Shown here piece after piece: positions 3,082 to 45,231 of a stretch of 48,262 nt of DNA. Where the stretch lies: the sequence record MF158042; one strand, written 5' to 3'. Source of the stretch: Shigella phage Sd1. The translations under genes were made by a program, and so were the position numbers. Under the pieces are notes generated by a model. That model was not told the origin of the DNA and made no database searches. It saw only the letters and a list, made by a program, of their open reading frames with translations. Numbering within the stretch: the first letter of the stretch is position 1; every line of letters begins with the position of its first letter.

Positions 3082-3124
3082 AATATAATCCATCCGTGGA
3101 TTTTAGTTTTAACAAAAAGTGCTA
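3082..3124 (-). promoter_or_regulatory. Palindrome-type promoter P12 (variant site taacaaaaagtgcta, 22-bp spacer, TATATT)
   Basis: Same architecture; site overlaps stop codon of upstream gene. Confidence 0.5.
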
Positions 3125-3922: not shown

Positions 3923-3965
3923 ATAATACACCACCTCACCGATTCGTCTTTAGCAATTCGTGCTA
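3923..3965 (-). promoter_or_regulatory. Palindrome-type promoter P2 (tagcaattcgtgcta, 22-bp spacer, TATTAT)
   Basis: Same architecture; site overlaps VRR-NUC stop codon. Confidence 0.55.
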
Positions 3966-6378: not shown

Positions 6379-6423
6379 ATCTAAATTCCTATAAAAATTG
6401 TCTTGTAGCGTTTAATTGAGTAC

Positions 6424-6466
6424 AATACTACCATCAAATCGGAATGACTTTTAACAAAAAATGCTA
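6424..6466 (-). promoter_or_regulatory. Palindrome-type promoter P13 upstream of helicase (variant site taacaaaaaatgcta)
   Basis: Palindrome, about 21 bp, TAGTAT-like -10 on the minus strand; lies in divergent region with the plus-strand gene at 6480. Confidence 0.4.
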
Positions 6467-6479
6467 TTGAGGTGGTGAA

Positions 6480-6965
6480 ATGAATGCAGTTGACAAGCGA
6501 ACCATTAATGGTAACAACGGAACAGTCCGCACTGAGGACAAAAGGCAACGCAAGCGACCTTCAGGTTACTACGTTTTAAAAGATGAAGTAAGGGCCGGAC
6601 TGCGCGCACGGCTAGAGATGGTTCTTGATTTCTTCGGCACAAAGGCAAACATAGCAAAGCAGTTAAAGGTAACCCCACAGGCTGTAGAGGAATGGTTTAA
6701 GCGTGGTATGATTTCTGCGCGTGGGGCTCAACTTTCGCACAACTACTACAAGCGAAATGGAGAAGGTTTTCGAGCCACATTCTGCCGACCGGACCTGCAA
6801 TTCGACGGCAACGGCAAGCCATTAACGCTTCGCTGCAAAAAGCGTCACATGCTGCGCGTCGTAACCGAGGCTGAACTAGCCACCAAGCCAGAGTGTCGAT
6901 CATGGCGCAAGATTAAGGAAGAGAATCGTAAAAAGCGAGAGGCAGAGAAAAACAGCACGATTTGA
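6480..6965 (+). CDS. Putative HTH DNA-binding protein
   Basis: Segment IAKQLKVTPQAVEEWFKRGMIS resembles Cro/YdaS-like HTH; gaggtggtg SD. Confidence 0.45.
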   Translation: MNAVDKRTINGNNGTVRTEDKRQRKRPSGYYVLKDEVRAGLRARLEMVLDFFGTKANIAKQLKVTPQAVEEWFKRGMISARGAQLSHNYYKRNGEGFRATFCRPDLQFDGNGKPLTLRCKKRHMLRVVTEAELATKPECRSWRKIKEENRKKREAEKNSTI

Positions 6966-7020: not shown

Positions 7021-7947
7021 ATGAATCATCACGACAAGAATGAAGTAATATCTAAAATGAAAGGGATGTGGGGTGATTTTTACTCGTCACAACTAGGTTG
7101 GACAAGAGAGAATCTAAGTAAGAAACACGGCCCTTGCCCTAGCTGCGGTGGGCGTGATAGGTTTCGCTTCACTGATGAGTTGGGCCAAGAAAAGGGGAAT
7201 GGCTCAGCAATATGTAACCAATGCGGTAATGATAGTGGTGTAGGCTGGGTAATGAAGTGCTCTGGAATGAGTTATAGTGAAACAATAGATACACTTGGTG
7301 ATTGGCTGAATCTCGTTCCAATAGAGGTTATATCAAAAGCAAACAAAAGAGCATCAAGAACTTCACCGTATAAGATGGGGTCGCAAATGGACCATGAAAA
7401 ATGCTGGGAGATAATGCTTAGAACTGAAGTTGTAGAATCAACTCCACTCAGTACATACGAGGGTATCTATAGCGAGTTTGGTTTTGATGTTGGCCGGACA
7501 AAGTCAGGAGAAATAATTCACGCAATACCGTGCTTTATGGCATATGATGATGGCATATCAGAAGAGATGTGCAATGTGATGTTTATTAACGAGGAAGGAG
7601 ATGTTAGCTATGCTGCAAAAGATTATTCACGTCAGTCTGTGGCTGTTATTGGTTCCCTTAAGGATGATGAGTTCGCTTATTTGGTCGATAATTGGATTGA
7701 TGGTGTTCGCGTTCATCTTGCTACTGGGAACCGCTGTGTGCTTGTTTGCCACTCAAGCTACAACATGGAAATGATTGCTTACGCGCTTAGAAACTACAAG
7801 TTACGCATCGCTTGTACTCGCCACGATTTTGATTTACTCGCTGTTGCTGACGACCGCAATCTTGATATTGTAATACCAAATGATGATAACCACTTCAAAT
7901 CAGGAATAAGAAAGCGAATATACAAAGCAAGTGAATTGCTAGACTAA
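7021..7947 (+). CDS. Putative DNA primase (zinc-ribbon type)
   Basis: N-terminal CPSCGG...CNQCGN zinc-binding motif; ATG with perfect ggagg SD; sits beside the helicase. Confidence 0.55.
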   Translation: MNHHDKNEVISKMKGMWGDFYSSQLGWTRENLSKKHGPCPSCGGRDRFRFTDELGQEKGNGSAICNQCGNDSGVGWVMKCSGMSYSETIDTLGDWLNLVPIEVISKANKRASRTSPYKMGSQMDHEKCWEIMLRTEVVESTPLSTYEGIYSEFGFDVGRTKSGEIIHAIPCFMAYDDGISEEMCNVMFINEEGDVSYAAKDYSRQSVAVIGSLKDDEFAYLVDNWIDGVRVHLATGNRCVLVCHSSYNMEMIAYALRNYKLRIACTRHDFDLLAVADDRNLDIVIPNDDNHFKSGIRKRIYKASELLD

Positions 7948-7969
7948 CCTCCTTCGGGAGGTTTTTTTA
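7946..7969 (+). terminator. Rho-independent terminator after primase
   Basis: aacctcc-ttcg-ggaggtt stem-loop followed by TTTTTT. Confidence 0.75.
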
Positions 7970-7995
7970 TACCTGAAAGATGCTACAATCCAACT

Positions 7996-8010
7996 TAGCA
8001 ATTCGTGCTA
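7996..8010. promoter_or_regulatory. Palindrome site S3 (tagcaattcgtgcta) 25 bp upstream of tailspike start
   Basis: Perfect copy of the palindrome but no -10 at the usual plus-strand spacing; possible operator or antisense promoter. Confidence 0.35.
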
Positions 8011-8034
8011 TTTTACAAATGGAGACTTTACACA

Positions 8035-10293
8035 ATGGCGATTTATGACTTAGGAACAGCGTCGCTGGCCGCAAATGGCGAGATAACTGGCGTCGGGACA
8101 ACATGGAAAGCACCTCTTACATTGATCAGAGTTGGTGCAACCATTGTATTTAAAACTGAGCCAGTACAAATTTACACCATATCTGAGATCATCAGCGACA
8201 CACAGATTAATGTTTATAACCCCAATTCTGAAACTGCCCCTGCCGGAACTGGTTACGCGATTCTTGCTCACGATGGGATTACCGTTCAGGGTTTGGCTCA
8301 GGATGTTGCTGAAACTCTGCGTTACTATCAGTCAAAAGAAACTTCAATTGAGTCCTTAATTGAAATAATTGAAAACTCAGATATTGATGTTATTGATGGT
8401 AAAATTCAGGAAATGCAGCAAATTCTAAGTAGCACAATGGCAGCAGAAGCGTCAGCAAAATCAAGTAGTGATAGCGCTCTTGAATACAGTAATGAATCGA
8501 TAAACAGTTCTAATGAGTCAAAGTCTGCAAGGGATGAGGCGGTAGCTGCTAAGAATTCGACAATTGAAGCTATTAATAACGCAGGAGATGCTGGAACACT
8601 GGTTACACTCTCCAATTCTAGCGGCGCTTCTCTTATCGGCACGGCTGATGGCGTCACTGTTCAGGAGGCAATTACAAATATAAACTCCGAACTAAGCTCT
8701 GTGAGTGGTTTGAGGGGAGATTTAGCCAGTGTAGATGGTTCAAGTTTGGTCTATCTCCCGAGCTACGATGACCTGCGTTCGTATTCTGGCACAGCAACAT
8801 ATCTATATGTCAGAGGGCGAAGTGCTGGAACCACATTGGCCTGTGGGTGGTTTGGCATTTCCCTTGAGGATACTACAACGCCAGACGATGACGGGACAAT
8901 TTTAGTCGACGCCCTCAATCGGAGATGGGTTCGTATATTTAATGGGGTCTTACTTCCAGAATGGTTTGGGGCCGATCCATCAGGAACTTCAGATTGCACG
9001 AGCGCTTTTAATAAATGCTTCGCATCTGCAAAAGGAAAAGAGGTAAAACTAGGCGGTAAGTATAAATTCCTTAACCCTATTGTAGTTGACTACGGGGATC
9101 AGTATAGCCTCAAGGTTAGTGGCACCGGGAGCTCAAACCATAAGAGTGGCGCGAAGACAGATAACTACTGTTATCTTGATTTTGATGATATCCCAGAAGG
9201 CTCGAGAGCTTTAACATTCAAAGGTGTAAGAGGTCTTAACCTAAATGATTTCCATATATCACACCGTAAAGCTAGCTCGTCGGTATCGATTGCTTTATGG
9301 ATTACTCAGCTTGATAACTTTAAAATTGATGGTTTAAGTATAGATTCAAATTCTGGCCCATCTGGTCAGGGTATTCGTTTCGGAGAGTCTAGTGGTGAAG
9401 ACTGTGCTTTCATGGGGTCGGTGTCAAATTGCAAAGTATGGATGCACGGGGGCGGGCCAGCATTTGCAGTGCAACCTTTATGCACATCAATAACACTAAA
9501 GAACTGCTATCAAATAGGGGGGTATTATTATTTTCAAGGCTGCATTTACATGTCCATGCTATCTTGTGCCTCAGAAGGAAGTCAGGTAAACGGTTATGGT
9601 TATGTTCTGTATTCCGTGAAAGGGCTCACGGCCATAAACTGTGCAGGTGAGGGAAATAAAAATGGAGTTTTTTACATTTCTAATGGATCAAGTAACGTAG
9701 AAATAATTTCTCCTTTTGGCTCTGGCAACAACTCGGGTAATACAGCTATACCTGGCGCCCTTGTTTATGTGGATGGAAGTAGTGGGTTTAATGCTAATAT
9801 TCATATAGATAACCCCGTGAGCGAGAATCAAGGCTCAAACACAGTTAATGATATTGGTTTTAGTTCTTCCAATAAAAACATTAGTGTATCAAACGTGTAT
9901 TCGCAGAATCTATCAAAAGGAATCGGTGGCTCTGATTCGTGGGCGGCTTTAGATCTTAGTGTTAGTGGGGATTTATCACAAAGGCGATTTACCTTCACCA
10001 CTAGTGGTTTCACGGTGTCATCACCGGTGATGAGTGGGAGGTACGTTAGAAATGGTAAGAGGGTTGATTTCCACCTATCATTTAGCGGAAGCTCTGTAAT
10101 AAACACAACACTTGGCTCGAGCCTTTTACAGCTTCCATTTGGTTCGTTGGTTGCTGAATCAGTATGCTCTGTTACTAGTAATACTGGCACCAGTTTTGGA
10201 AATGCAATCATAAATTCCAGTGGAAATATCTATTTACCAACAACTAGCGGAGCCACTGGTTTTGTAATTTCTGGCTCAATCATCACGGAATAA
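8035..10293 (+). CDS. Tailspike/tail fiber with conserved N-terminal anchor domain and beta-helix (pectate-lyase-like, putative depolymerase) body
   Basis: N-terminus MAIYDLGTASLAANGEITGVGTTWK... of the phage fiber N-terminal type; Ser/Asn/Gly-rich repetitive beta-strand composition with many NxxG/SxxN motifs; ATG with ggag SD. Confidence 0.6.
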   Translation: MAIYDLGTASLAANGEITGVGTTWKAPLTLIRVGATIVFKTEPVQIYTISEIISDTQINVYNPNSETAPAGTGYAILAHDGITVQGLAQDVAETLRYYQSKETSIESLIEIIENSDIDVIDGKIQEMQQILSSTMAAEASAKSSSDSALEYSNESINSSNESKSARDEAVAAKNSTIEAINNAGDAGTLVTLSNSSGASLIGTADGVTVQEAITNINSELSSVSGLRGDLASVDGSSLVYLPSYDDLRSYSGTATYLYVRGRSAGTTLACGWFGISLEDTTTPDDDGTILVDALNRRWVRIFNGVLLPEWFGADPSGTSDCTSAFNKCFASAKGKEVKLGGKYKFLNPIVVDYGDQYSLKVSGTGSSNHKSGAKTDNYCYLDFDDIPEGSRALTFKGVRGLNLNDFHISHRKASSSVSIALWITQLDNFKIDGLSIDSNSGPSGQGIRFGESSGEDCAFMGSVSNCKVWMHGGGPAFAVQPLCTSITLKNCYQIGGYYYFQGCIYMSMLSCASEGSQVNGYGYVLYSVKGLTAINCAGEGNKNGVFYISNGSSNVEIISPFGSGNNSGNTAIPGALVYVDGSSGFNANIHIDNPVSENQGSNTVNDIGFSSSNKNISVSNVYSQNLSKGIGGSDSWAALDLSVSGDLSQRRFTFTTSGFTVSSPVMSGRYVRNGKRVDFHLSFSGSSVINTTLGSSLLQLPFGSLVAESVCSVTSNTGTSFGNAIINSSGNIYLPTTSGATGFVISGSIITE

Positions 10294-10310: not shown

Positions 10311-10344
10311 TAAATAAAAAGGCCCCGAAAGGGGCCTTATCTTT
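10311..10344. terminator. Bidirectional rho-independent terminator (ggcccc-gaaa-ggggcc)
   Basis: Perfect 6-bp GC stem with A-run upstream and T-rich downstream, between convergent tailspike and SSB genes. Confidence 0.7.
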
Positions 10345-10348
10345 GATA

Positions 10349-10771
10349 TCAGAAAGGGATGTCGTCTTCGAAGTTCTGCTTCTGCTGAGGTTGTTGCCGC
10401 TGCTGTTGCTGTTGTTGGGGCTGTTGTGGTTTTTTCTGTTGTTGCCCACCTTCAACACGCTGACTAAACTCAAGTCTAGGGTTGTTCATGTTAACCGTTA
10501 CGTATGTCTTTCCATCTTTATCGCGAACATCAACCGATAAACTCTCTGCGCTAACGCTAATAACCTTACCTTCTTGAAAGGCCTCATTGTACCAATCTAG
10601 CATTGATTCTTTAGCGAAAAACACAGCGCGGTAGTTGGTGTACTGTGATTGACCATCCTTATCTTTATATCGCTCACTAAAGTCAACTGCAAACATTTTC
10701 CAGTTACCATTGGCGTTTTGACCTTCTTTAGTGAATGGAGCGCGGCGAATCTGACCAGTAATTACGTGCAT
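10349..10771 (-). CDS. ssb: Single-stranded DNA-binding protein
   Basis: OB-fold-length protein with Gln/Pro-rich linker and acidic C-terminal tail ending DDIPF. Confidence 0.75.
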   Translation of the reverse strand: MHVITGQIRRAPFTKEGQNANGNWKMFAVDFSERYKDKDGQSQYTNYRAVFFAKESMLDWYNEAFQEGKVISVSAESLSVDVRDKDGKTYVTVNMNNPRLEFSQRVEGGQQQKKPQQPQQQQQQRQQPQQKQNFEDDIPF

Positions 10772-11732: not shown

Positions 11733-11775
11733 ACTATACCTCACCTATTAAATGTTGTTTTAGCAATTAGTGCTG
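11733..11775 (-). promoter_or_regulatory. Palindrome-type promoter P4 (tagcaattagtgctg, 22-bp spacer, TATAGT)
   Basis: Same architecture; site overlaps exonuclease stop codon. Confidence 0.55.
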
Positions 11776-14189: not shown

Positions 14190-14233
14190 TAGCACGATTT
14201 GCTAAAGACTACCGCATCAGCCTTTGCTATAGT
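14190..14233 (+). promoter_or_regulatory. Palindrome-type promoter P6 (tagcacgatttgcta, 23-bp spacer, TATAGT)
   Basis: Followed by leader tactccatcgaaacgaaac and ATG at 14274. Confidence 0.55.
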
Positions 14234-16250: not shown

Positions 16251-19200
16251 TTAGTAAACTCCAGTCAAACGACCAATCTGAACGCGAAGTCTTCCGTTAG
16301 CATCGGCAACCGAGATGGTCTGGTTCGTTTGCTTCATTTTACCCTCTCCGGCCGTTGAGCCGTTATTCTCGAAAGTGCCAGCCTTATCAAGCCTCCAACC
16401 AGTGTTATTTGCAACAAAGTTATTTGACTGAATAGCACCACCAATCTTCGCGTTAGTGATTGAACCGTCCTGAATCACCGCGCTCTGAATGAACACCTGG
16501 TTATTATCTACAACGAAAGGCAGCGACCACTGACCGGAACCAGAGCTAATGCCGTTGCTTATTGCGAACCTGTTAGCATCGAAAATGAACTGACTACGAA
16601 CATTTCCACCACTACCAGTTAACTCCATGCTCATACCAGCGCCGTACTCAACTCCATTGTACTTCAGACCAAGCTTAACGCCGTACTGAACACCAACGCC
16701 TTCGACCGTGGCATAAGAGTCAAGCTTCTGATTCAAGGCCGCCTCGTTATCTCCAAGCCTTGCGCTTAATTGAGTATCAGCTGTAGCCCTGGCTTCGGTC
16801 TCCGTAGCAAGCGCGGTTTCAATTGTCGTAATCTGACCAACAATCTCATCATCAATCTGCGCTTTAAGCTCTGTGAGAGCATCTACACGCGCCTGAGTTT
16901 CATCAGCAATCAAACTTACAGCCTGACGATATTCAGCCTTCCTTGCCCCATTCTCGCGCTTCATAACGCGAACATCAGTGTCGTTTGCCAGAGCATTCTC
17001 TATGATTGCCTCAGCCTGATTCTGGATGTCAGTATTTGCATCAATGGCGTTCTGGAGGAGATACTTGTAACCATCAGAGTTTTCGATATCAACCTTTATT
17101 TCACCAATGATTGCACTCACGTCATCGGATGCCATACCCCTGACAAAGTCAGTCCATGGAGATACGTTACCTATCCTGTCAATAATCCTTGCCCTGTACC
17201 ATCTTACGTTTCCTGCCGGCAAAGTTGTGTGCCAGTATTCGTACTGAGGATACGGAACCAGCGTAAGCAGTGACGCGTTCTCTGGGTTGTATGTACCATC
17301 ACCATTATCAGGAACCTGCTGAAGCTCAGTGTACGCAGTATCAGCTGAATCATTAGGAAACCCCCATTTAACCCTAATCCCGAAAACCTCATCATCAGAT
17401 GCGGTAATTACAGGCGGCGCAGAAGGCTCCCCAATCTTGCCAGTCAGGCTAACTGTCGTGATATCAGACCAAGCAGATACCGATTTCTGGTCAGTTACAG
17501 CACGAACCCTTACGTCGTAAATGCCGGCGTAAATGCCTTCAATATCAACCTCTGTGTTAGCCGTCTCTGGCACGTTAATCCAGTTGCCGTTATTCTTACG
17601 CCATTGTACGTTGTATGTTTTTGCATACTGCACCTTGTCGTAGCCAATAACCATCGTCTCAACGCTCAAACCCTGAACTACCTTACTGTAGCTAGTAACG
17701 GTGATATTTTCAGGTGGTAAAATCCTGTCGGGGTCAACGATGCTTGTTGGCCTGTCATCGATGTTTACACCATAGTCAATCTCATCGTACTTGTTAGGAT
17801 CATACTGAACAGCCGTGATGCTGTACTGGAATGAGTCCTCTCCGTCCGTGTTAGCTTTTTGAATACCGGTCACCACGTACTGCTGCAACGCCAGATTCTG
17901 CTTGTCGATTGCGAATACCGTATCCGGCTGAGGTGTGAAGCTAAATGCTGTATTCAGTTCAAGCGTCAACTTATCGGCAGATACCGAAGCGATAGTTCTG
18001 TACTCTGGGCTGCCATCTGGCTTGTTGATTAGAATCCTGTCGCCAGGGTCAGCATCAATAGCGAACGGAACAAAAACCTGCAATCCTGTAGCTTTAACAA
18101 TTCGCCCCGAAAGGTTCAATGTGTAGTTGCTAGACCACGCCTGGTCATTGACAGCAATCACATCACCAATCATAGGAATCATGCCTTCTAGGCCAGTTGT
18201 AAACGTTACCGTTTCACTGCGCAGGTTTGTTTTCAGCAACCAACGACCTCGTCGGTTAGCTTCACTGCGCCTTACGCATCCAATTGCAGTCAGGTCTACA
18301 GGGTTATAACCAAATCGGCGAGTTGCCTCAAGGTCGAATACCGGCTCCACATCTTGCTGGTAGTTGTTCTGCTCGTCATCAAACTGAACGTTGGCTGTCG
18401 TGTAAAGGCTCTTGTCGCTGGAAAACGTGCGGTTGAACAATCCATTAACTACGTTGTCATTAGTGAATACGTAGCTGGGTTGACGCGGCCTGTCCACTAC
18501 AATACCGATTTGCTCACCATCATAGAAAGTTAATCCACGGAAGATTGAGCAGATATCACGAATCAGCTGGTACGCTTCAACTTTCTGTTGCATGACAACG
18601 TTGCAAGTGTAACGCGGCTCCAATCCACCCTTTCCATCAGGAACCATCTGGTCGCAGAATTGCGCAGCTTCATACAGACCCCATTTATCAATCTCAACGC
18701 CAAGTTCACGCTGATCTAAGCCATAACGCTGACTAACCACCAGATCATATAAAACCCAGGCCGGGTTGTCAGACCATGCCATTTTAAATGTTCCATTCCA
18801 TGTGCCGCTATAAGTCCTTGTCTCTGGATTGTAGTTTGTCGGTACGCGGATAAGTTTCCACTTCTTCTTAATGGCTATCGTTGGGATCCCGTTAGGGAAC
18901 AGGTCGGAACTAAACTCCACGTAAACAAGTGCTGTTAGCGGGTAACGGAACTTAGCGTCGATTACTTCCTGATAGGTTGTAATCTGCATTCCGTTAACCA
19001 TGGTGCTGCTTGTTGAGTCTGGCGTTAACTTCCTAATACGAACAAGAGCGCTGCTAAACTCGGCTGGTAGGTTAACCCTGATGCTACGGTCGTAACCTGT
19101 TGTAGTTTTACCGTTAGCCACGCCTCTGGTATATTCAGTGTACGCTGAGCCATTAACTGATAAATCGATTGCATATTCGCATGTTGTGCCATTTAAATCT

Positions 19201-19646
19201 CCATTCTCTTCTTGCTTAACGAGCCTAGGCCAGAACAGCTTAACGCGGATTGCTGAAAGCTGACTGTTGTTAACTGCGATGATGTAAGGTGTATCATTGT
19301 TAATCTCACGACTAACCTGAATCTCGGATGCTGCACCATCTAGTCCTGATATGTAATCTTGAGATTGAGTGCCCGGGCGAAACTCAGCGGTTACACCTTC
19401 ATAGTTGAATGAGTTGTCCTGGTTCTGCACTGGAACATCAGCAAGGTAAACATCCTTTAGTGAGAAGCTAGAATCAACCTCACCATCAGCAACCGCAAGC
19501 AGAACCTTAATCTTGTTTAGTGAAATCAGGTTATCTTCTTGCTCTACAGGCGTGTGCGGCTTCTTGCTACCACCCTTGCTTCCATAAATCTTTGGCAAAT
19601 CGGCCATATCATATAACCTCGTTATTTGTTTAACCATTTGTGCCAT
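16251..19646 (-). CDS. Tail tip / host-specificity protein (lambda J-like, 1131 aa)
   Basis: Very large protein directly downstream of I/K/L/M-like genes; size and position typical of central tail fiber. Confidence 0.7.
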   Translation of the reverse strand: MAQMVKQITRLYDMADLPKIYGSKGGSKKPHTPVEQEDNLISLNKIKVLLAVADGEVDSSFSLKDVYLADVPVQNQDNSFNYEGVTAEFRPGTQSQDYISGLDGAASEIQVSREINNDTPYIIAVNNSQLSAIRVKLFWPRLVKQEENGDLNGTTCEYAIDLSVNGSAYTEYTRGVANGKTTTGYDRSIRVNLPAEFSSALVRIRKLTPDSTSSTMVNGMQITTYQEVIDAKFRYPLTALVYVEFSSDLFPNGIPTIAIKKKWKLIRVPTNYNPETRTYSGTWNGTFKMAWSDNPAWVLYDLVVSQRYGLDQRELGVEIDKWGLYEAAQFCDQMVPDGKGGLEPRYTCNVVMQQKVEAYQLIRDICSIFRGLTFYDGEQIGIVVDRPRQPSYVFTNDNVVNGLFNRTFSSDKSLYTTANVQFDDEQNNYQQDVEPVFDLEATRRFGYNPVDLTAIGCVRRSEANRRGRWLLKTNLRSETVTFTTGLEGMIPMIGDVIAVNDQAWSSNYTLNLSGRIVKATGLQVFVPFAIDADPGDRILINKPDGSPEYRTIASVSADKLTLELNTAFSFTPQPDTVFAIDKQNLALQQYVVTGIQKANTDGEDSFQYSITAVQYDPNKYDEIDYGVNIDDRPTSIVDPDRILPPENITVTSYSKVVQGLSVETMVIGYDKVQYAKTYNVQWRKNNGNWINVPETANTEVDIEGIYAGIYDVRVRAVTDQKSVSAWSDITTVSLTGKIGEPSAPPVITASDDEVFGIRVKWGFPNDSADTAYTELQQVPDNGDGTYNPENASLLTLVPYPQYEYWHTTLPAGNVRWYRARIIDRIGNVSPWTDFVRGMASDDVSAIIGEIKVDIENSDGYKYLLQNAIDANTDIQNQAEAIIENALANDTDVRVMKRENGARKAEYRQAVSLIADETQARVDALTELKAQIDDEIVGQITTIETALATETEARATADTQLSARLGDNEAALNQKLDSYATVEGVGVQYGVKLGLKYNGVEYGAGMSMELTGSGGNVRSQFIFDANRFAISNGISSGSGQWSLPFVVDNNQVFIQSAVIQDGSITNAKIGGAIQSNNFVANNTGWRLDKAGTFENNGSTAGEGKMKQTNQTISVADANGRLRVQIGRLTGVY

Positions 19647-30736: not shown

Positions 30737-32212
30737 CTATGCGAGAGGTTTGCTTAGGTTTTCCACCTTATAAGCGTAAACGCCTGCCAAAGTATCAGAT
30801 GAGTTCCTTATTCCAACTATTGTAAGCTTGAAGCATTTAGAGTCAGCCGTAGCTCCTGGTGATGTGGTTATGTAATGCTCAGATGTGACTCCAAAAACGC
30901 CTGGCTTGAATACGCTATTCCAAAGAGCGGCCCCAGGAGGCATGCTTGTTACTATCGCTGTGTAGTTTTTCAACTTATCAGCTGCAACTGTAGTGAGTGA
31001 GTCAATCTGGTATGCAGTGTGCCTTATTGAAGCGATATTTGCTGTACCAGTATTACTAACACCAACCCATAAACCCTTGGCTGGAACTGTGGCGTTCTTC
31101 TCTCCGGTAAGGGCGAACCTTATTGTTGTCTCTCCGGGTATATCTATAAAGTCAGTATCCGTCTGATTGATCAACCCCGACCTTACGCCTGAAGCTACGT
31201 TATAAGAGGCTGGACCAGCCACCCCCTGTAAGCCCTGAGGTCCCGTAGGGCCCTGCAATCCACGCTCACCCTGCGGGCCTGCCGGGCCTTGTGGTCCAAC
31301 TGCACCAGCTACACCTTGTAAGCCTTGCGGGCCGGCTGGGCCTTGCTCACCTTGCAGGCCCCTCTCGCCTTGTGGGCCTTGAATACCTTCCGGACCTGTC
31401 GGGCCAGTTGGGCCTGCTGGACCAGCGGAACCCTGTGGGCCTGGGGCACCCTGTGCGGCCAGTAACTCCCAGGAATCGCTAACATCTGGATTTTCTCCGG
31501 TCACGGCGGCGGTAGCAAACCAGCTAGAGTTGTTAAATGTAACGACATCATCTTTAACGTAAGCTGTCGCAGCGTCGTACATCCCGCGGAATGTTAAGCC
31601 TGCCGGACCAACTGGACCCGCATCACCTTTATCACCTTTAGGGCCGGCCGGACCTGCTGCGCCGGTTGCACCGATAGGGCCTTGCGGACCAGACTCGCCA
31701 GTTTCACCTTGAGGACCTTGCGGGCCTACGGGGCCAGCTGGACCAGTGTCGCCTTTGGCACCTGCCGAGCCTGCCGGGCCGGTAGCACCTGTTGGGCCTT
31801 GAGGACCCTGTGGACCAATAGCTCCTGCCGGGCCCGCTGGACCCTGTGGACCAACCGGACCTTGCGGGCCTGCTTCACCTGAGCCTCCTTCTTCATCACT
31901 TACAAAATCACCTTTCGCCAGCGCTGAAAGATAAGCACCATCTTCGAAGTGGGCATTGCCAAACCTGCGCCAGCCCTGGGCTAGATATCTGTTAACCCTG
32001 TTAACTAATCCCTGAATTGTGGTATCGGATGTCACCATGAAGTCTTCAACGTTGTTTGCTGTTCCTTTCGCCATCTTCATGCCAAAGAGGGTGCCGCTCA
32101 GCATCTGCACGTCGCCATATGGCTGGAATCCTGATGAAATCATGATTTTTACGTTTCTGGCTAAGATTTCAGGTGAATTCCCTACTGCCATAGCAATTTC
32201 TGTGTAAGCCAT
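30737..32212 (-). CDS. Collagen-like repeat protein (two Gly-X-Y tracts)
   Basis: Two long uninterrupted G-X-Y runs ([16 protein letters not shown]... and [22 protein letters not shown]...) flanked by globular N- and C-terminal domains; aggag SD. Confidence 0.8.
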
Positions 32213-32293: not shown

Positions 32294-33586
32294 TTACGCT
32301 CGAGACACTGAAAGGATTTCAACTCGCTCACCGGTCTGCAGGTATAGCTGTCCGGCAACGTCATTCTCATCAATGGCATTTACTACACCAGAGAAGATTC
32401 TTACGCCAAATCCCTTAGTCAGCCTTGCAACTACGTTAAATCCGCGAGGCTTAACTGGAACCATTAATGACTTCTGACCTGTGGCTGCCAGAAGAACTTC
32501 GCGAGCCATTGCCATACCCCTGAACTCATGACCCATAGCGCCAGGGTGAACCCTATCAGTTCCGGTGTATATTTCAGAGTTTGCTGCCGTTACATAATTG
32601 CTAATGTTGATTACTGGTATCCCGTTATCAGCACAGAAGCCATCAACCAACTCAACAACCCTCTGAGTTGTGGCATTCAATCCAATTGGTGTTGCGCAGC
32701 TAATCTGGATGATTGGTACATCACTGTAAGTCTTCCTGGTCTCCTCCAGGCACTCCGACATAGACCTAAGCAGCCACTCAGCCTTGCCAGGGTCATTTAT
32801 TGAAACTGAGTCATTATAACCAAGCGCCCACGAGATAACGTCAGGTTTTCTATTTAACGCTGCGAGCCTTGTCTTTACCCTGTTAATCGGGAACCTGCCC
32901 TCCTCTTTTGAAGTCCAGGCCGATCCACCAATCCCTTCGCAGATACCATCGAATCCAAGCGATCGACTAAAAGTATAGAAGTCGTTTACTGCAGGGGATG
33001 AGCCATAAGCCTGAGTCCTAAATCCCGCACCAGTACCAGCGGTGTAGCTATCACCCATCTGGTAAATGAATGGCCTTTTAATAGTAATATCCCTGCTAAT
33101 CGTGTCTAACGGACCGAATGCGAAAGAGCCAAATGCAGTGTTAACGCCATAAATCTCAATATGCCTTAACTTTCCGCTAACGACTCCATCATTGGCCTTC
33201 ACTTGAATCCAGCTAACACCCTCAGTGGTTGGTGTCGTGATAGCATCTAGGGTTACCAATTTACCGTCAACGAATATTGAGTAAGATGAAAGAGAGCCAA
33301 TGGTCTTAATTTCAAAAAGCCTTGAATCAGTCATAAACTCAAGTTTCATCTGAAGGCCATTCGAAGGCTTCTGACCAGTGTAAGACCCGCCTGAAACGTT
33401 ATCAAATCCGTAGGTTGTCCACATGAGATTGGTCTCATTAAGTCTATTGATAACTTGAGGGGTGGTAATTGATGTTGCGGCCCTGATTTCCTTGATTGCG
33501 GAAAACTCAGTCGATAGCTGAACTGGCTGCATAGTAGCCAAGCCGTTTTCAATATTTCTTTTTACCAAATCAATAAAGCTTGCCAT
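32294..33586 (-). CDS. SGNH/GDSL-family hydrolase (esterase) with N-terminal extension
   Basis: Block I GDSYT, block III GYND, block V DRVHPG in C-terminal half of translation. Confidence 0.7.
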   Translation of the reverse strand: MASFIDLVKRNIENGLATMQPVQLSTEFSAIKEIRAATSITTPQVINRLNETNLMWTTYGFDNVSGGSYTGQKPSNGLQMKLEFMTDSRLFEIKTIGSLSSYSIFVDGKLVTLDAITTPTTEGVSWIQVKANDGVVSGKLRHIEIYGVNTAFGSFAFGPLDTISRDITIKRPFIYQMGDSYTAGTGAGFRTQAYGSSPAVNDFYTFSRSLGFDGICEGIGGSAWTSKEEGRFPINRVKTRLAALNRKPDVISWALGYNDSVSINDPGKAEWLLRSMSECLEETRKTYSDVPIIQISCATPIGLNATTQRVVELVDGFCADNGIPVINISNYVTAANSEIYTGTDRVHPGAMGHEFRGMAMAREVLLAATGQKSLMVPVKPRGFNVVARLTKGFGVRIFSGVVNAIDENDVAGQLYLQTGERVEILSVSRA

Positions 33587-33634
33587 TTTCTTTCCTCCAA
33601 TTTTAAGTGAAACTAATTGTACCAGTTTACAGGC

Positions 33635-33659
33635 GTAAAAAAACCTCCCGAAGGAGGTT
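33635..33659 (-). terminator. Rho-independent terminator upstream of SGNH gene
   Basis: acctcc-cgaa-ggaggt stem followed by TTTTTTT on the minus strand. Confidence 0.65.
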
Positions 33660-33676
33660 TAGTTTAGCTTTGCTAA

Positions 33677-36943: not shown

Positions 36944-36986
36944 ATTATACGCCATCCCTGGCGATTGTATTTAGCAATTCGTGCTA
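36944..36986 (-). promoter_or_regulatory. Palindrome-type promoter P7 (tagcaattcgtgcta, 22-bp spacer, TATAAT)
   Basis: Perfect palindrome overlapping TerL stop codon, consensus -10, leader caactcatcaaaacgagagg. Confidence 0.6.
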
Positions 36987-38658: not shown

Positions 38659-39174
38659 TCATAGCTTCTCCATAATAGATTCAAGTGCGGCCTTCATAGC
38701 TTCCTCGTCGTTAACTACCGCATTAGAAGCGTTGTTGATGTTAACCTCTTGCGGCTTGTCGATACCAAGGTCTTTGCCAATCAGTCCAGGGTTGACGATG
38801 TTGTTAACACCCAGCTGATACTTCTGCTCAAAGATGACCGAATCCACAAACTCCATCACCTCATCGAATCCAGGCGAAGATCGCCATTTACTAATGGCAT
38901 TATGACCTACACCGCAGAAAAGCTGGAAGCCAGTTATCGTAAATACTCTCGGCTTGTGAATAAGGTTTTCTGTTACGACGCCCTGAAAGCTAGCCGTTTC
39001 AATGGCCTTAATCGCTTGCTCTTCAGCCCAGCTGAAATACCTGACGGCCATGTCGAATACCTGTTCAGGGGTGTACCTGTGGTTAATCTTCAGATTGGCA
39101 ATATCGCCATACTTCTTGTTATACAGCTCCTTGAAGTTTCCTATCTTCTGGTGAATCTTTTTCTCTTCTGGCAT
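38659..39174 (-). CDS. Putative terminase small subunit
   Basis: Position immediately upstream of TerL; 171 aa. Confidence 0.4.
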   Translation of the reverse strand: MPEEKKIHQKIGNFKELYNKKYGDIANLKINHRYTPEQVFDMAVRYFSWAEEQAIKAIETASFQGVVTENLIHKPRVFTITGFQLFCGVGHNAISKWRSSPGFDEVMEFVDSVIFEQKYQLGVNNIVNPGLIGKDLGIDKPQEVNINNASNAVVNDEEAMKAALESIMEKL

Positions 39175-39219
39175 GTGATATTCCTCCTGTTTTAAAAGTC
39201 ATTGTACCATGAGTACGGA

Positions 39220-39246
39220 CGAAAAAAAGCCCTCACTAGGAGGGCG
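39220..39246 (-). terminator. Rho-independent terminator upstream of terminase genes
   Basis: gccctc...gagggc stem followed by TTTTTTTC on the minus strand. Confidence 0.6.
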
Positions 39247-39273
39247 AAGAACTACATTGCGAGATTACCAATC

Positions 39274-39475: not shown

Positions 39476-39551
39476 TGGCGTTCCGCGCTGGACTCGAACC
39501 AGCAACTGAGACTTAGGAGGTCTCTGCGTTATCCTGTTACACCAGCAGAAC
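39476..39551 (-). tRNA. tRNA-Arg (anticodon CCU)
   Basis: Manual fold: acceptor GTTCTGC/GCGGAAC, D-arm GTGT/ACGC, anticodon stem GAGAC/GTCTC with loop CTCCTAA, T-arm GCTGG-TTCGAGT-CCAGC, discriminator G and encoded CCA. Confidence 0.6.
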
Positions 39552-39556
39552 TTAAT

Positions 39557-39630
39557 TGGCACGGGATGTTGGAATCGAACCAACCTCTTTGGTTTTGGAG
39601 GCCACTATTCTACCAATGAACTAACCCCAT
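39557..39630 (-). tRNA. tRNA-like gene, possible tRNA-Trp (anticodon CCA); anticodon stem non-canonical
   Basis: Acceptor ATGGGGT/ATCCCGT with two G-U pairs, D-arm GTTC/GAAT, T-arm GTTGG-TTCGATT-CCAAC, encoded CCA; anticodon stem has only 3 Watson-Crick pairs. Confidence 0.4.
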
Positions 39631-40912: not shown

Positions 40913-40955
40913 ATAGTATCGCATCCTTGCGATTGATGTTTAGCAATTAGTGCTA
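40913..40955 (-). promoter_or_regulatory. Palindrome-type promoter P8 (tagcaattagtgcta, 22-bp spacer, TACTAT)
   Basis: Same architecture. Confidence 0.5.
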
Positions 40956-41830: not shown

Positions 41831-41873
41831 ACTATATCAAATGGCCTTGCGGAAGGTTTACCAATTCGTGCTA
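41831..41873 (-). promoter_or_regulatory. Palindrome-type promoter P9 (taccaattcgtgcta, 22-bp spacer, TATAGT)
   Basis: Same architecture; site overlaps stop codon of upstream gene. Confidence 0.5.
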
Positions 41874-43252: not shown

Positions 43253-43296
43253 TAGCACTTTTTGCTAATGACCATTCAGCCCTGATTGGTTATATT
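43253..43296 (+). promoter_or_regulatory. Palindrome-type promoter P10 (tagcactttttgcta, 23-bp spacer, TATATT)
   Basis: Perfect-arm palindrome, -10, leader cattacatcaacaacgaggag. Confidence 0.55.
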
Positions 43297-43937: not shown

Positions 43938-44617
43938 AAAAGGTAATTTACTGCCTGTTTGATGGTTCAGGTATCGCTGGCCTGCCATGGGCTGAGAATG
44001 GTCACACAGTCTACTGCTTCAACGCGGACTCAGGTAATCATGGCGAATATCACATTAAGATGCAGCATGAGAATATCCACTATATCAACATGTGGATTGA
44101 TAAGGATTTCATCACTAAGTGCGAATTGCTCGGGCTTCCTCCGGCGCAGATGGTTATCGGCTTCCCTGATTGCACGCTGTTCTCTCAGTCAGGATCACAG
44201 CATGAGCGGGGTGAAGATGAACTGGCGTACGCCCTGGCTAATGCTAAGCTTGTCGAAGAGGTTGGCAATCACTTTAATGCTCCATGGATGGTTGAGAATC
44301 CGGTAGGTAAGCTGTCAACTCTATGGCGTAAGCCTGATTTCTATTTCAACCCGTATGAGTACGGAGGGCTAATGAATGCTCATGATCTGCCGTACCACGA
44401 AAAAATGCCAAAATACGACGGATACACCAAGAAAACTTGCATCTGGCATGGCAACGGATTCGTTGAGCCAGTGAAGAATCCCGGGCCGATTAACATCGGT
44501 TTCTTTTGGGGATGGAAGTACCTCGGCGGGAAGTCTGCTAAGACTAAGCAGTTGCGCTCACTGACTCCACGTGGATTTGCGCGCGCCGTATACCTGGCGA
44601 ATCATTTAACCAAATAG
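43934..44617 (+). CDS. Compact DNA methyltransferase-like protein (C5-cytosine MTase-like motifs)
   Basis: Motif I-like LFDGSGIAG near N-terminus, motif IV-like GFPDCTLFSQSG, motif VI-like ENPVG; no DPPY/NPPY seen. Confidence 0.45.
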   Translation: MKKVIYCLFDGSGIAGLPWAENGHTVYCFNADSGNHGEYHIKMQHENIHYINMWIDKDFITKCELLGLPPAQMVIGFPDCTLFSQSGSQHERGEDELAYALANAKLVEEVGNHFNAPWMVENPVGKLSTLWRKPDFYFNPYEYGGLMNAHDLPYHEKMPKYDGYTKKTCIWHGNGFVEPVKNPGPINIGFFWGWKYLGGKSAKTKQLRSLTPRGFARAVYLANHLTK

Positions 44618-44657
44618 CACGAATTGCTAAAGCCCTTCGGGGCTTATGCTGTATATT
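44615..44657 (+). promoter_or_regulatory. Palindrome-type promoter P11 (tagcacgaattgcta, hairpin in 22-bp spacer, TATATT)
   Basis: Site overlaps MTase stop codon; spacer contains agccc-ttcg-gggct hairpin; leader catatcatcgaaacgaaac. Confidence 0.55.
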
Positions 44658-45049: not shown

Positions 45050-45231
45050 AGAGGATTAGAGTTTTATGCTCGGCCACCAGAGATATAGTGGTAGGTGGCG
45101 AAGTAATAATAAAGGCTGGACATACATTTAAGTGCTATATGGTTGGTGTTGGTCATTATTATGTCAATAGAAAAGGGATGAGATTTAACTTGATTGATGG
45201 TGAGTTTAAAGTAAATAGCATTTTTTGTTAA
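45046..45231 (+). CDS. Hypothetical protein
   Basis: ORF, ATGA overlap. Confidence 0.35.
   Translation: MKRIRVLCSATRDIVVGGEVIIKAGHTFKCYMVGVGHYYVNRKGMRFNLIDGEFKVNSIFC

Follow-up and report, generated by a model that had tools for sequence, protein, structure and literature searches.

Shigella phage Sd1, a T1-like siphovirus, very probably encodes a lateral tailspike of the Drexlerviridae type, in which an anchor shared across the family carries an exchanged beta-helix module. The tailspike gene lies on the plus strand between the primase and ssb genes, and we analysed it within the whole 48,262 nt of Sd1 DNA (the window). It has already been annotated, in a published phage: its 752-aa product is 100% identical to YP_009791915.1 / ATE86083.1 of Sd1, a protein recorded as "tail fiber protein" or "putative structural protein". 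The location and general nature of such a gene are nothing new for T1-like phages.

Anchor domain and genomic locus

In a megablast search, the first 24 kb of the window match the T1-like Drexlerviridae phages e4/1c, Sf12, Rogue1, AHP24 and phiEB49, at about 87% over about half of the query. Nucleotides 1 to ~317 of the tailspike gene are 84-91% identical to genes labelled tail fiber, lateral tail fiber or tail spike in 30 Drexlerviridae records, and residues 1 to ~195 of the protein share ~65% identity with Drexlerviridae fibres. PHROG tail-fibre families match the protein with E values down to 2e-94; the phage collection that was searched leaves out Sd1's own record, and for this reason gave no full-length phage match. 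A sequence search of the PDB aligns residues 1-206 with the N-termini of Depo32 (7VZ3/7VYV) and DpK2 (7LZJ), with an E value of 6e-37. The N-terminal homology runs to about residue 195-206, and these alignments indicate that the first ~200 residues comprise a family-wide anchor and a stalk, the latter (residues 106-235) presumably a coiled coil.

A preliminary description of this DNA had given the same limits for the 752-aa reading frame, put it on the strand opposite to the tail module and assigned it a conserved fibre-type N-terminal anchor. All of this is borne out here, with the J-like gene (16251..19646) and the other tail genes on the minus strand. The homologues all begin with MAIYD, as does the product read from the ATG at 8035; these N-termini and the Shine-Dalgarno sequence ahead of the ATG rule out a GTG start at 8005, which would give 762 aa.

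The gene order helicase (-), regulator (+), primase (+), fibre (+), ssb (-), erf (-) and exoVIII (-) is identical in Rogue1, JeanPiccard, SU57 and e4/1c. In the lateral tail fibre (LTF) locus of Drexlerviridae, the flanks, recombination genes and primase-helicase genes, are conserved and syntenic, and of the fibre gene only the 5' end is held in common (Maffei et al. 2021; PMC8594841). In Drexlerviridae of Klebsiella, tailspike-type products of this locus are well established (DpK2, Depo32 and depoKP36; PMC11652154). The comparison of gene orders thus indicates that the slot between primase and ssb is an ancestral one in this family. A recent horizontal insertion of the whole gene into the early region, which would explain its distance from the tail module and would suit its strand and the terminators on both sides, is already refuted for the gene as a whole by orthologues with the same N-terminus in the same slot across Rogunavirinae and Braunvirinae, by a locus described as fully syntenic (PMC8594841), by DNA identity to relatives that continues from the primase gene into the first ~317 nt of the tailspike gene, and by an unremarkable GC content. 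The preliminary description had concluded from the separation of the gene from the J-like gene that it was acquired; the ancestral slot in relatives (PMC8594841) speaks against this for the whole gene, and the idea survives for the C-terminal module.

Predicted structure of the C-terminal module

Residues ~310-752 are predicted with high confidence to form a right-handed parallel beta-helix of the pectate-lyase/tailspike fold. An AlphaFold2 model, a monomer built on 13 sequences, is confident from about residue 310 to 752 (predicted local distance difference test, pLDDT, 83-95), with short strands that recur at regular intervals from ~335 to ~620 and are followed by a beta-sandwich at 641-751. 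When this model was compared with the PDB by Foldseek, the top matches were solely tailspikes and depolymerases. The best was the K2-2 tailspike protein (TSP; 4.5e-15), followed in order by CBA120 TSP2, Kp7 gp52, Dettilon, AM24, Fri1, Depo32 and DpK2, with P22 lower. Residues 238-335 match the N-terminal part of the Acinetobacter AM24 tailspike 5W5P (E 3e-11 in the PDB sequence search) and also 7XYC. Together, the model and these matches indicate that residues ~245-752 consist of a connector, a right-handed parallel beta-helix and a beta-sandwich. The preliminary description had proposed a beta-helix within a Ser/Asn/Gly/Thr-rich region, and the structure prediction agrees; these four residues make up 40% of positions 331-630 and 48% of positions 631-752, that is, 40-48% over the C-terminal two thirds of the protein.

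Some observations weigh against the tailspike assignment. A Pfam scan of the 752-aa protein gave no family above threshold, the PF27114 model being apparently missing from the Pfam copy used; residues 1-238 are poorly modelled (pLDDT <50), with just two alignment rows covering that part; and sequence identity to every solved tailspike beta-helix is 11-17%, so that substrate, chemistry and catalytic residues are not transferable from the solved tailspikes. The virion role has behind it the record name "putative structural protein", which is an annotation. PF27114 (Phage_tail_beta) is precomputed on the representative of the protein's own 90%-identity cluster and on most homologues. A sub-threshold match to Sigma70_r1_1 in the Pfam scan of the protein is noise from the acidic helical stalk.

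Exchange of the module among anchors

Close relatives of the module are few. Residues 221-752, used as a query, found only 14 relatives in 5.8 billion proteins, and in an exhaustive HMMER search with residues 245-752, 33 of 1.84 billion cluster representatives matched at E<=1e-30; several hundred further tailspikes match the connector of ~100 aa alone. When the relatives are aligned, homology extends from about residue 245 to the C-terminus and the N-termini are wholly different, a pattern that identifies residues ~245-752 as a predicted receptor-binding module exchanged horizontally.

Besides the Drexlerviridae anchor, the module is found on three others. Tailspikes of E. coli and E. albertii prophages carry it behind the P22 head-binding domain PF09008, at 53% identity over 98% of the module, and in these the tailspike gene follows arc/mnt/ant, as in P22 (e.g., WP_244599908.1). 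PF09008 was not matched by the Sd1 tailspike in the Pfam scan, its N-terminus being the Drexlerviridae anchor. The third anchor, which begins MNELFSQGGKGS, is encoded on a 72-kb contig (Logan SRR18468154) with SU10-type portal and adaptor genes, where the module is 80% identical. The fourth, beginning MSSGCGDVLS, is on a 44.8-kb contig with PolA and SNF2 genes, and here the module is 79% identical. One receptor-binding module on four anchors, of siphovirus, P22-like, SU10-like and other phages, is a clean example of such exchange. In other deposited phages the beta-helix module was sought and not found, matches there being limited to the ~100-aa connector. No copy of the P22-type homologue occurs in 5,426 complete E. 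coli genomes, and therefore no serotype could be linked to a glycan target.

On the SU10-like podovirus contig SRR18468154 (3031-8037), the module homologue directly follows a second beta-helix protein of 971 aa. This two-tailspike arrangement suggests a phage with dual specificity.

Probable glycan recognition and cleavage

By analogy with the family and with the P22-type carriers of the module, the tailspike most likely assembles as a trimer at the side of the tail tip, where it would bind, and probably cleave, a host surface polysaccharide. O-antigen is the most likely target, because Shigella and the hosts of the P22-type prophages present O-antigen. Contact with the glycan would allow the phage to adsorb reversibly in a first step and to pass through the glycan layer, after which the J-like tip and its receptor-binding protein may engage an outer-membrane protein. 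The tailspike is the likely determinant of the O-antigen or other surface glycan that Sd1 can penetrate. For the LTF of Drexlerviridae in general, the BASEL authors state that an O-antigen role was never directly shown (PMC8594841).

Cleavage of the glycan is probable. E539 is nearly invariant across the 33 diverse members of the module family, and E514, D456 and D580 are invariant in the closer homologues only. E514 and E539 lie on neighbouring rungs, in the motifs CASEGS and CAGEGN, and E539, possibly with E514 on the adjacent rung, is the best candidate for a catalytic acid. There is precedent for a fibre that binds its glycan without cleaving it, in the polymannose-binding lateral fibre of T5, and the Sd1 protein could likewise be an adhesin. 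We consider this possible but distinctly less probable than cleavage, given the near-invariance of E539 with CASE(G)S and CAGE motifs on successive rungs, and given that the nearest structures in the Foldseek comparison are all active tailspike glycanases or depolymerases. P22-type tailspikes are typically enzymatic and classically target O-antigen, and the P22-type carriers of the module belong to this class.

The target might instead be a capsule or another exopolysaccharide, as for the capsule depolymerases of Klebsiella Drexlerviridae. The Sd1 anchor has homologues in the K2-capsule depolymerases Depo32 and DpK2, and the best Foldseek match is a K2 capsule tailspike. However, the beta-helix is only 12-15% identical to the K2 enzymes, the name of the phage refers to a Shigella host, and the module is otherwise carried by P22-like prophages of E. 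coli and E. albertii, a kind of phage whose tailspikes classically target O-antigen. A capsular target therefore seems improbable.

Comparison with known systems

The Sd1 gene resembles the Drexlerviridae LTF locus described for the BASEL collection (PMC8594841) in its slot, in its conserved 5' end and anchor, in its hypervariable distal part and in its presumed primary role at O-antigen. It differs in that the Sd1 allele is a single-gene tailspike without a separate distal subunit or chaperone, and in that its beta-helix module occurs in no other deposited Drexlerviridae genome. Depo32 of GH-K3, DpK2 of RAD2 and depoKP36 belong to the same genomic family, and share with the Sd1 protein both the homologous N-terminal ~200 residues and a plan of anchor, helical neck, connector, beta-helix and C-terminal domain. 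In contrast, their beta-helices are 12-14% identical to that of Sd1, they are longer (883-907 aa versus 752 aa), and their hosts are encapsulated Klebsiella rather than Shigella or E. coli; given this difference in hosts, the substrate is expected to differ as well. The P22-type prophage tailspikes have homologous connector, beta-helix and C-terminal domains, with members annotated as PF27114, but have a PF09008 N-terminus and stand in a podovirus prophage context, and they are not siphovirus side fibres. K2-2 TSP (8IQ5), CBA120 TSP2 (5W6P/6W4Q) and Dettilon TSP (6F7K) are 11-17% identical to the Sd1 protein. With no characterised relative (<=17% identity to solved structures), the module is a candidate for a new glycanase specificity. 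Possible uses include typing of Shigella and E. coli and engineering of phage host range, and the practical value is modest.

Predicted promoter of the tailspike gene

The tailspike promoter is predicted to be of a class shared with the TerS and head genes. A cassette made up of a terminator hairpin with a T7 run, ~12 nt, TG(G/C)TACAAT, a leader and a Shine-Dalgarno sequence occurs in three intergenic copies, at 39172-39262 (-), 33584-33676 (-) and 7935-8037 (+). The genes that follow are those for TerS (38659..39174), for a head-decoration-like protein (32294..33586) and for the lateral tailspike. The hairpin at 7946-7963 is identical in sequence to the hairpin ahead of the head gene, and TG(C/A)TACAAT is kept before the fibre genes of Rtp, e4/1c, ESCO41, JeanPiccard, SU57 and Rogue1. 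The upstream terminator is predicted to end the regulator/primase transcript and, at the same time, to form the upstream part of the cassette. Downstream, the tailspike gene and the convergent ssb gene (10349..10771, -) have a hairpin in common. The strong flanking terminators named in the preliminary description are both confirmed.

In this arrangement the tailspike gene would be a separate transcription unit, insulated by terminators and driven by the cassette with its TGnTACAAT extended -10 element. The cassette would tie a structural gene embedded among replication genes to structural-gene timing. Two considerations count against this account of the promoter and the operator-like site proposed below. 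The bare sequence TGNTACAAT is not enriched in the window (5 sites versus 2.24 expected; 12 of 100 shuffles have at least as many), so the promoter claim rests on the shared cassette and on conservation across phages rather than on statistics. In addition, it is not evident why a phage would repress a structural gene through the apparent activator of other late promoters.

Compared with those of TerS and the head gene, the fibre cassette has an insertion of 14-18 nt between the -10 element and the Shine-Dalgarno sequence, which is the palindrome TAGCAATTCGTGCTA. The preliminary description had noted a palindrome close before the start codon, as we find, and had placed it over the core promoter. 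That placement has to be corrected, as the palindrome covers neither the -35 nor the -10 region and begins 7 nt past the extended -10, at about +1 to +15. Its position is kept in seven related phages, and the arrangement of -10 element, 6 nt and palindrome is kept in Rtp, e4/1c, ESCO41 (with diverged flanks), JeanPiccard and SU57; in Rogue1, TGATACAAT is retained and the palindrome is missing. An alternative -10 element within the palindrome (TGcTATTTT) was ruled out, as it is not conserved in ESCO41.

The tailspike promoter is best read as a structural-gene-type promoter with an added operator-like site, and it would not itself be one of the palindrome promoters described below. That the palindrome acts as such a site is a tentative proposal. 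Placed at +1 to +15, it would add modulation specific to this gene, the simplest form being repression by whatever factor binds this palindrome at its other sites, and repression or altered timing is a reasonable inference from its position. A conserved palindrome placed at +1 within a cassette common to structural genes is the sole part of this analysis able to open a new question.

Alternatively, the palindrome may have nothing to do with an operator of the tailspike gene, which we consider unlikely in either of two forms. In one, it would be a stem-loop affecting mRNA stability, since a transcript starting at ~7996 would have a hairpin at its extreme 5' end (-3.8 kcal/mol, z -3.3). However, that hairpin is weak, and at the 11 other oriented sites of the window the motif lies upstream of the -10 element and is therefore recognised as DNA. 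In the other form, it would be an activator site for an antisense promoter directed into the primase gene, as the palindrome, in the orientation of the other 11 sites, faces the minus strand with a TATAAA 24 nt away. Against this, the spacing elsewhere is fixed at 22-23 nt, the conserved CATCGAAACGAAAC-type leader is missing, and the antisense -10 is eroded (CATAAA in e4/1c, AATAAA in ESCO41) while the sense TGnTACAAT is kept. Both alternatives are weaker than the operator-like reading.

Palindrome sites and a candidate regulator

With up to one mismatch, TAGCA-N5-TGCTA occurs at 12 sites in the window, versus 2.07 expected, and none of 100 shuffles reaches 12. The palindrome promoters mentioned in the preliminary description are borne out: at eleven oriented TAGCAC-N3-TTGCTA sites a TAtAnT hexamer follows at a constant distance of 22-23 nt. 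Most of these sites also have a CATCGAAACGAAAC-like leader, and a -35 hexamer is absent from all of them. At these 11 sites the palindrome would lie at about -49 to -35, near -42, a geometry suggestive of class-II activators. The sites precede early genes (helicase, erf/ssb) as well as late genes (portal), and e4/1c shows the same pattern of palindrome and TAtAnT. A sigma-54 reading of TAGCAC-N3-TTGC was rejected, given a spacing 2 nt too short and TATAAT-like hexamers at a fixed distance after the sites. The palindrome strings were not found in the searchable literature.

A candidate for the protein that binds the palindrome is encoded at 6480..6965. This open reading frame (ORF), the first of the plus-strand block that also holds the tailspike gene, specifies a 161-aa Cro-like helix-turn-helix (HTH) protein, with a PF14549 match of 27 bits, below the cutoff, and a match to phrog_2856 ("transcriptional regulator"). 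It is preceded by a sigma-70-like promoter, TTGTCT-17-TACAAT, at 6398-6426 (+). The palindrome at 6452-6466 is downstream of this promoter and ahead of the start codon, at about +20 to +34 of the predicted start, and at the same time occupies a -42-type position for the divergent helicase promoter. This layout would be typical of an autoregulated activator.

It is conceivable, if doubtful, that one phage-encoded dimeric regulator, for which the Cro-like HTH protein is the candidate, activates the 11 promoters without -35 hexamers from about -42 and represses or delays its own operon and the tailspike promoter. In that case the tailspike gene, alone among the structural genes, would have a dosage or timing uncoupled from that of the other virion genes. 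No description of a Drexlerviridae-wide dual regulon was found in the searchable literature.

Table 1. Coordinates of the tailspike gene, its predicted domains and the associated regulatory features in the Sd1 window
Feature	Position	Strand	Remarks
Lateral tail fibre / tailspike coding sequence	8035..10293	+	ATG 8035; TAA 10291-10293 included; 752 aa
Shine-Dalgarno sequence GGAGA	8022..8026	+	GGAG 8022-8025; read from sequence
Virion-anchor domain, aa 1-105	8035..8349	+	kept across Drexlerviridae, also at DNA level
Ser/Ala-rich alpha-helical stalk, aa 106-235	8350..8739	+	helices 84-230 in model, pLDDT <50
Connector subdomain, aa 245-330	8767..9024	+	common to many tailspikes; start of exchanged module
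Right-handed parallel beta-helix, aa 331-635	9025..9939	+	predicted glycan-binding, probably glycan-cleaving domain
C-terminal beta-sandwich, aa 641-752	9955..10290	+	strands 641-751, pLDDT 82-91; kept in all full-length homologues
Intrinsic terminator, hairpin 7946-7963 + T7	7946..7969	+	-12.1 kcal/mol, z -3.6
Predicted extended -10, TGcTACAAT	7981..7989	+	conserved across phages; same element before TerS and head-decoration genes
15-bp palindrome	7996..8010	+	7 nt past -10; predicted +1..+15; 24 nt to ATG
Bidirectional terminator hairpin	10319..10338	both	-16.8 kcal/mol (+), -15.7 kcal/mol (-); U-run better on -
Oriented palindrome sites	3110-3124, 3951-3965, 6452-6466, 11761-11775, 14190-14204, 36972-36986		
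Oriented palindrome sites, continued	40941-40955, 41859-41873, 43253-43267, 44615-44629, 45216-45230		

Other features of the window

Minus-strand ORFs within the tailspike gene (e.g., 9828..10211) have no support, and between 7800 and 10450 the internal and inverted repeats are weak two-copy matches only, of a chance-like kind. Rfam gave no match in or near the tailspike gene, its sole matches in the window being two tRNA genes elsewhere.

A 491-aa ORF at 30737..32212 (-) resembles collagen-like families as well as "tail fiber protein" (phrog_5073, E 1e-157). Its place, between the genes for the head-decoration-like protein and the major head protein, is odd for a fibre. The ORF has a counterpart in e4/1c at 7065..8582 and may encode a head fibre or decoration protein. 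Two adjacent tRNA genes, at 39479-39551 and 39560-39630 (-), are located just upstream of the TerS cassette (RF00005, 52 and 49 bits).

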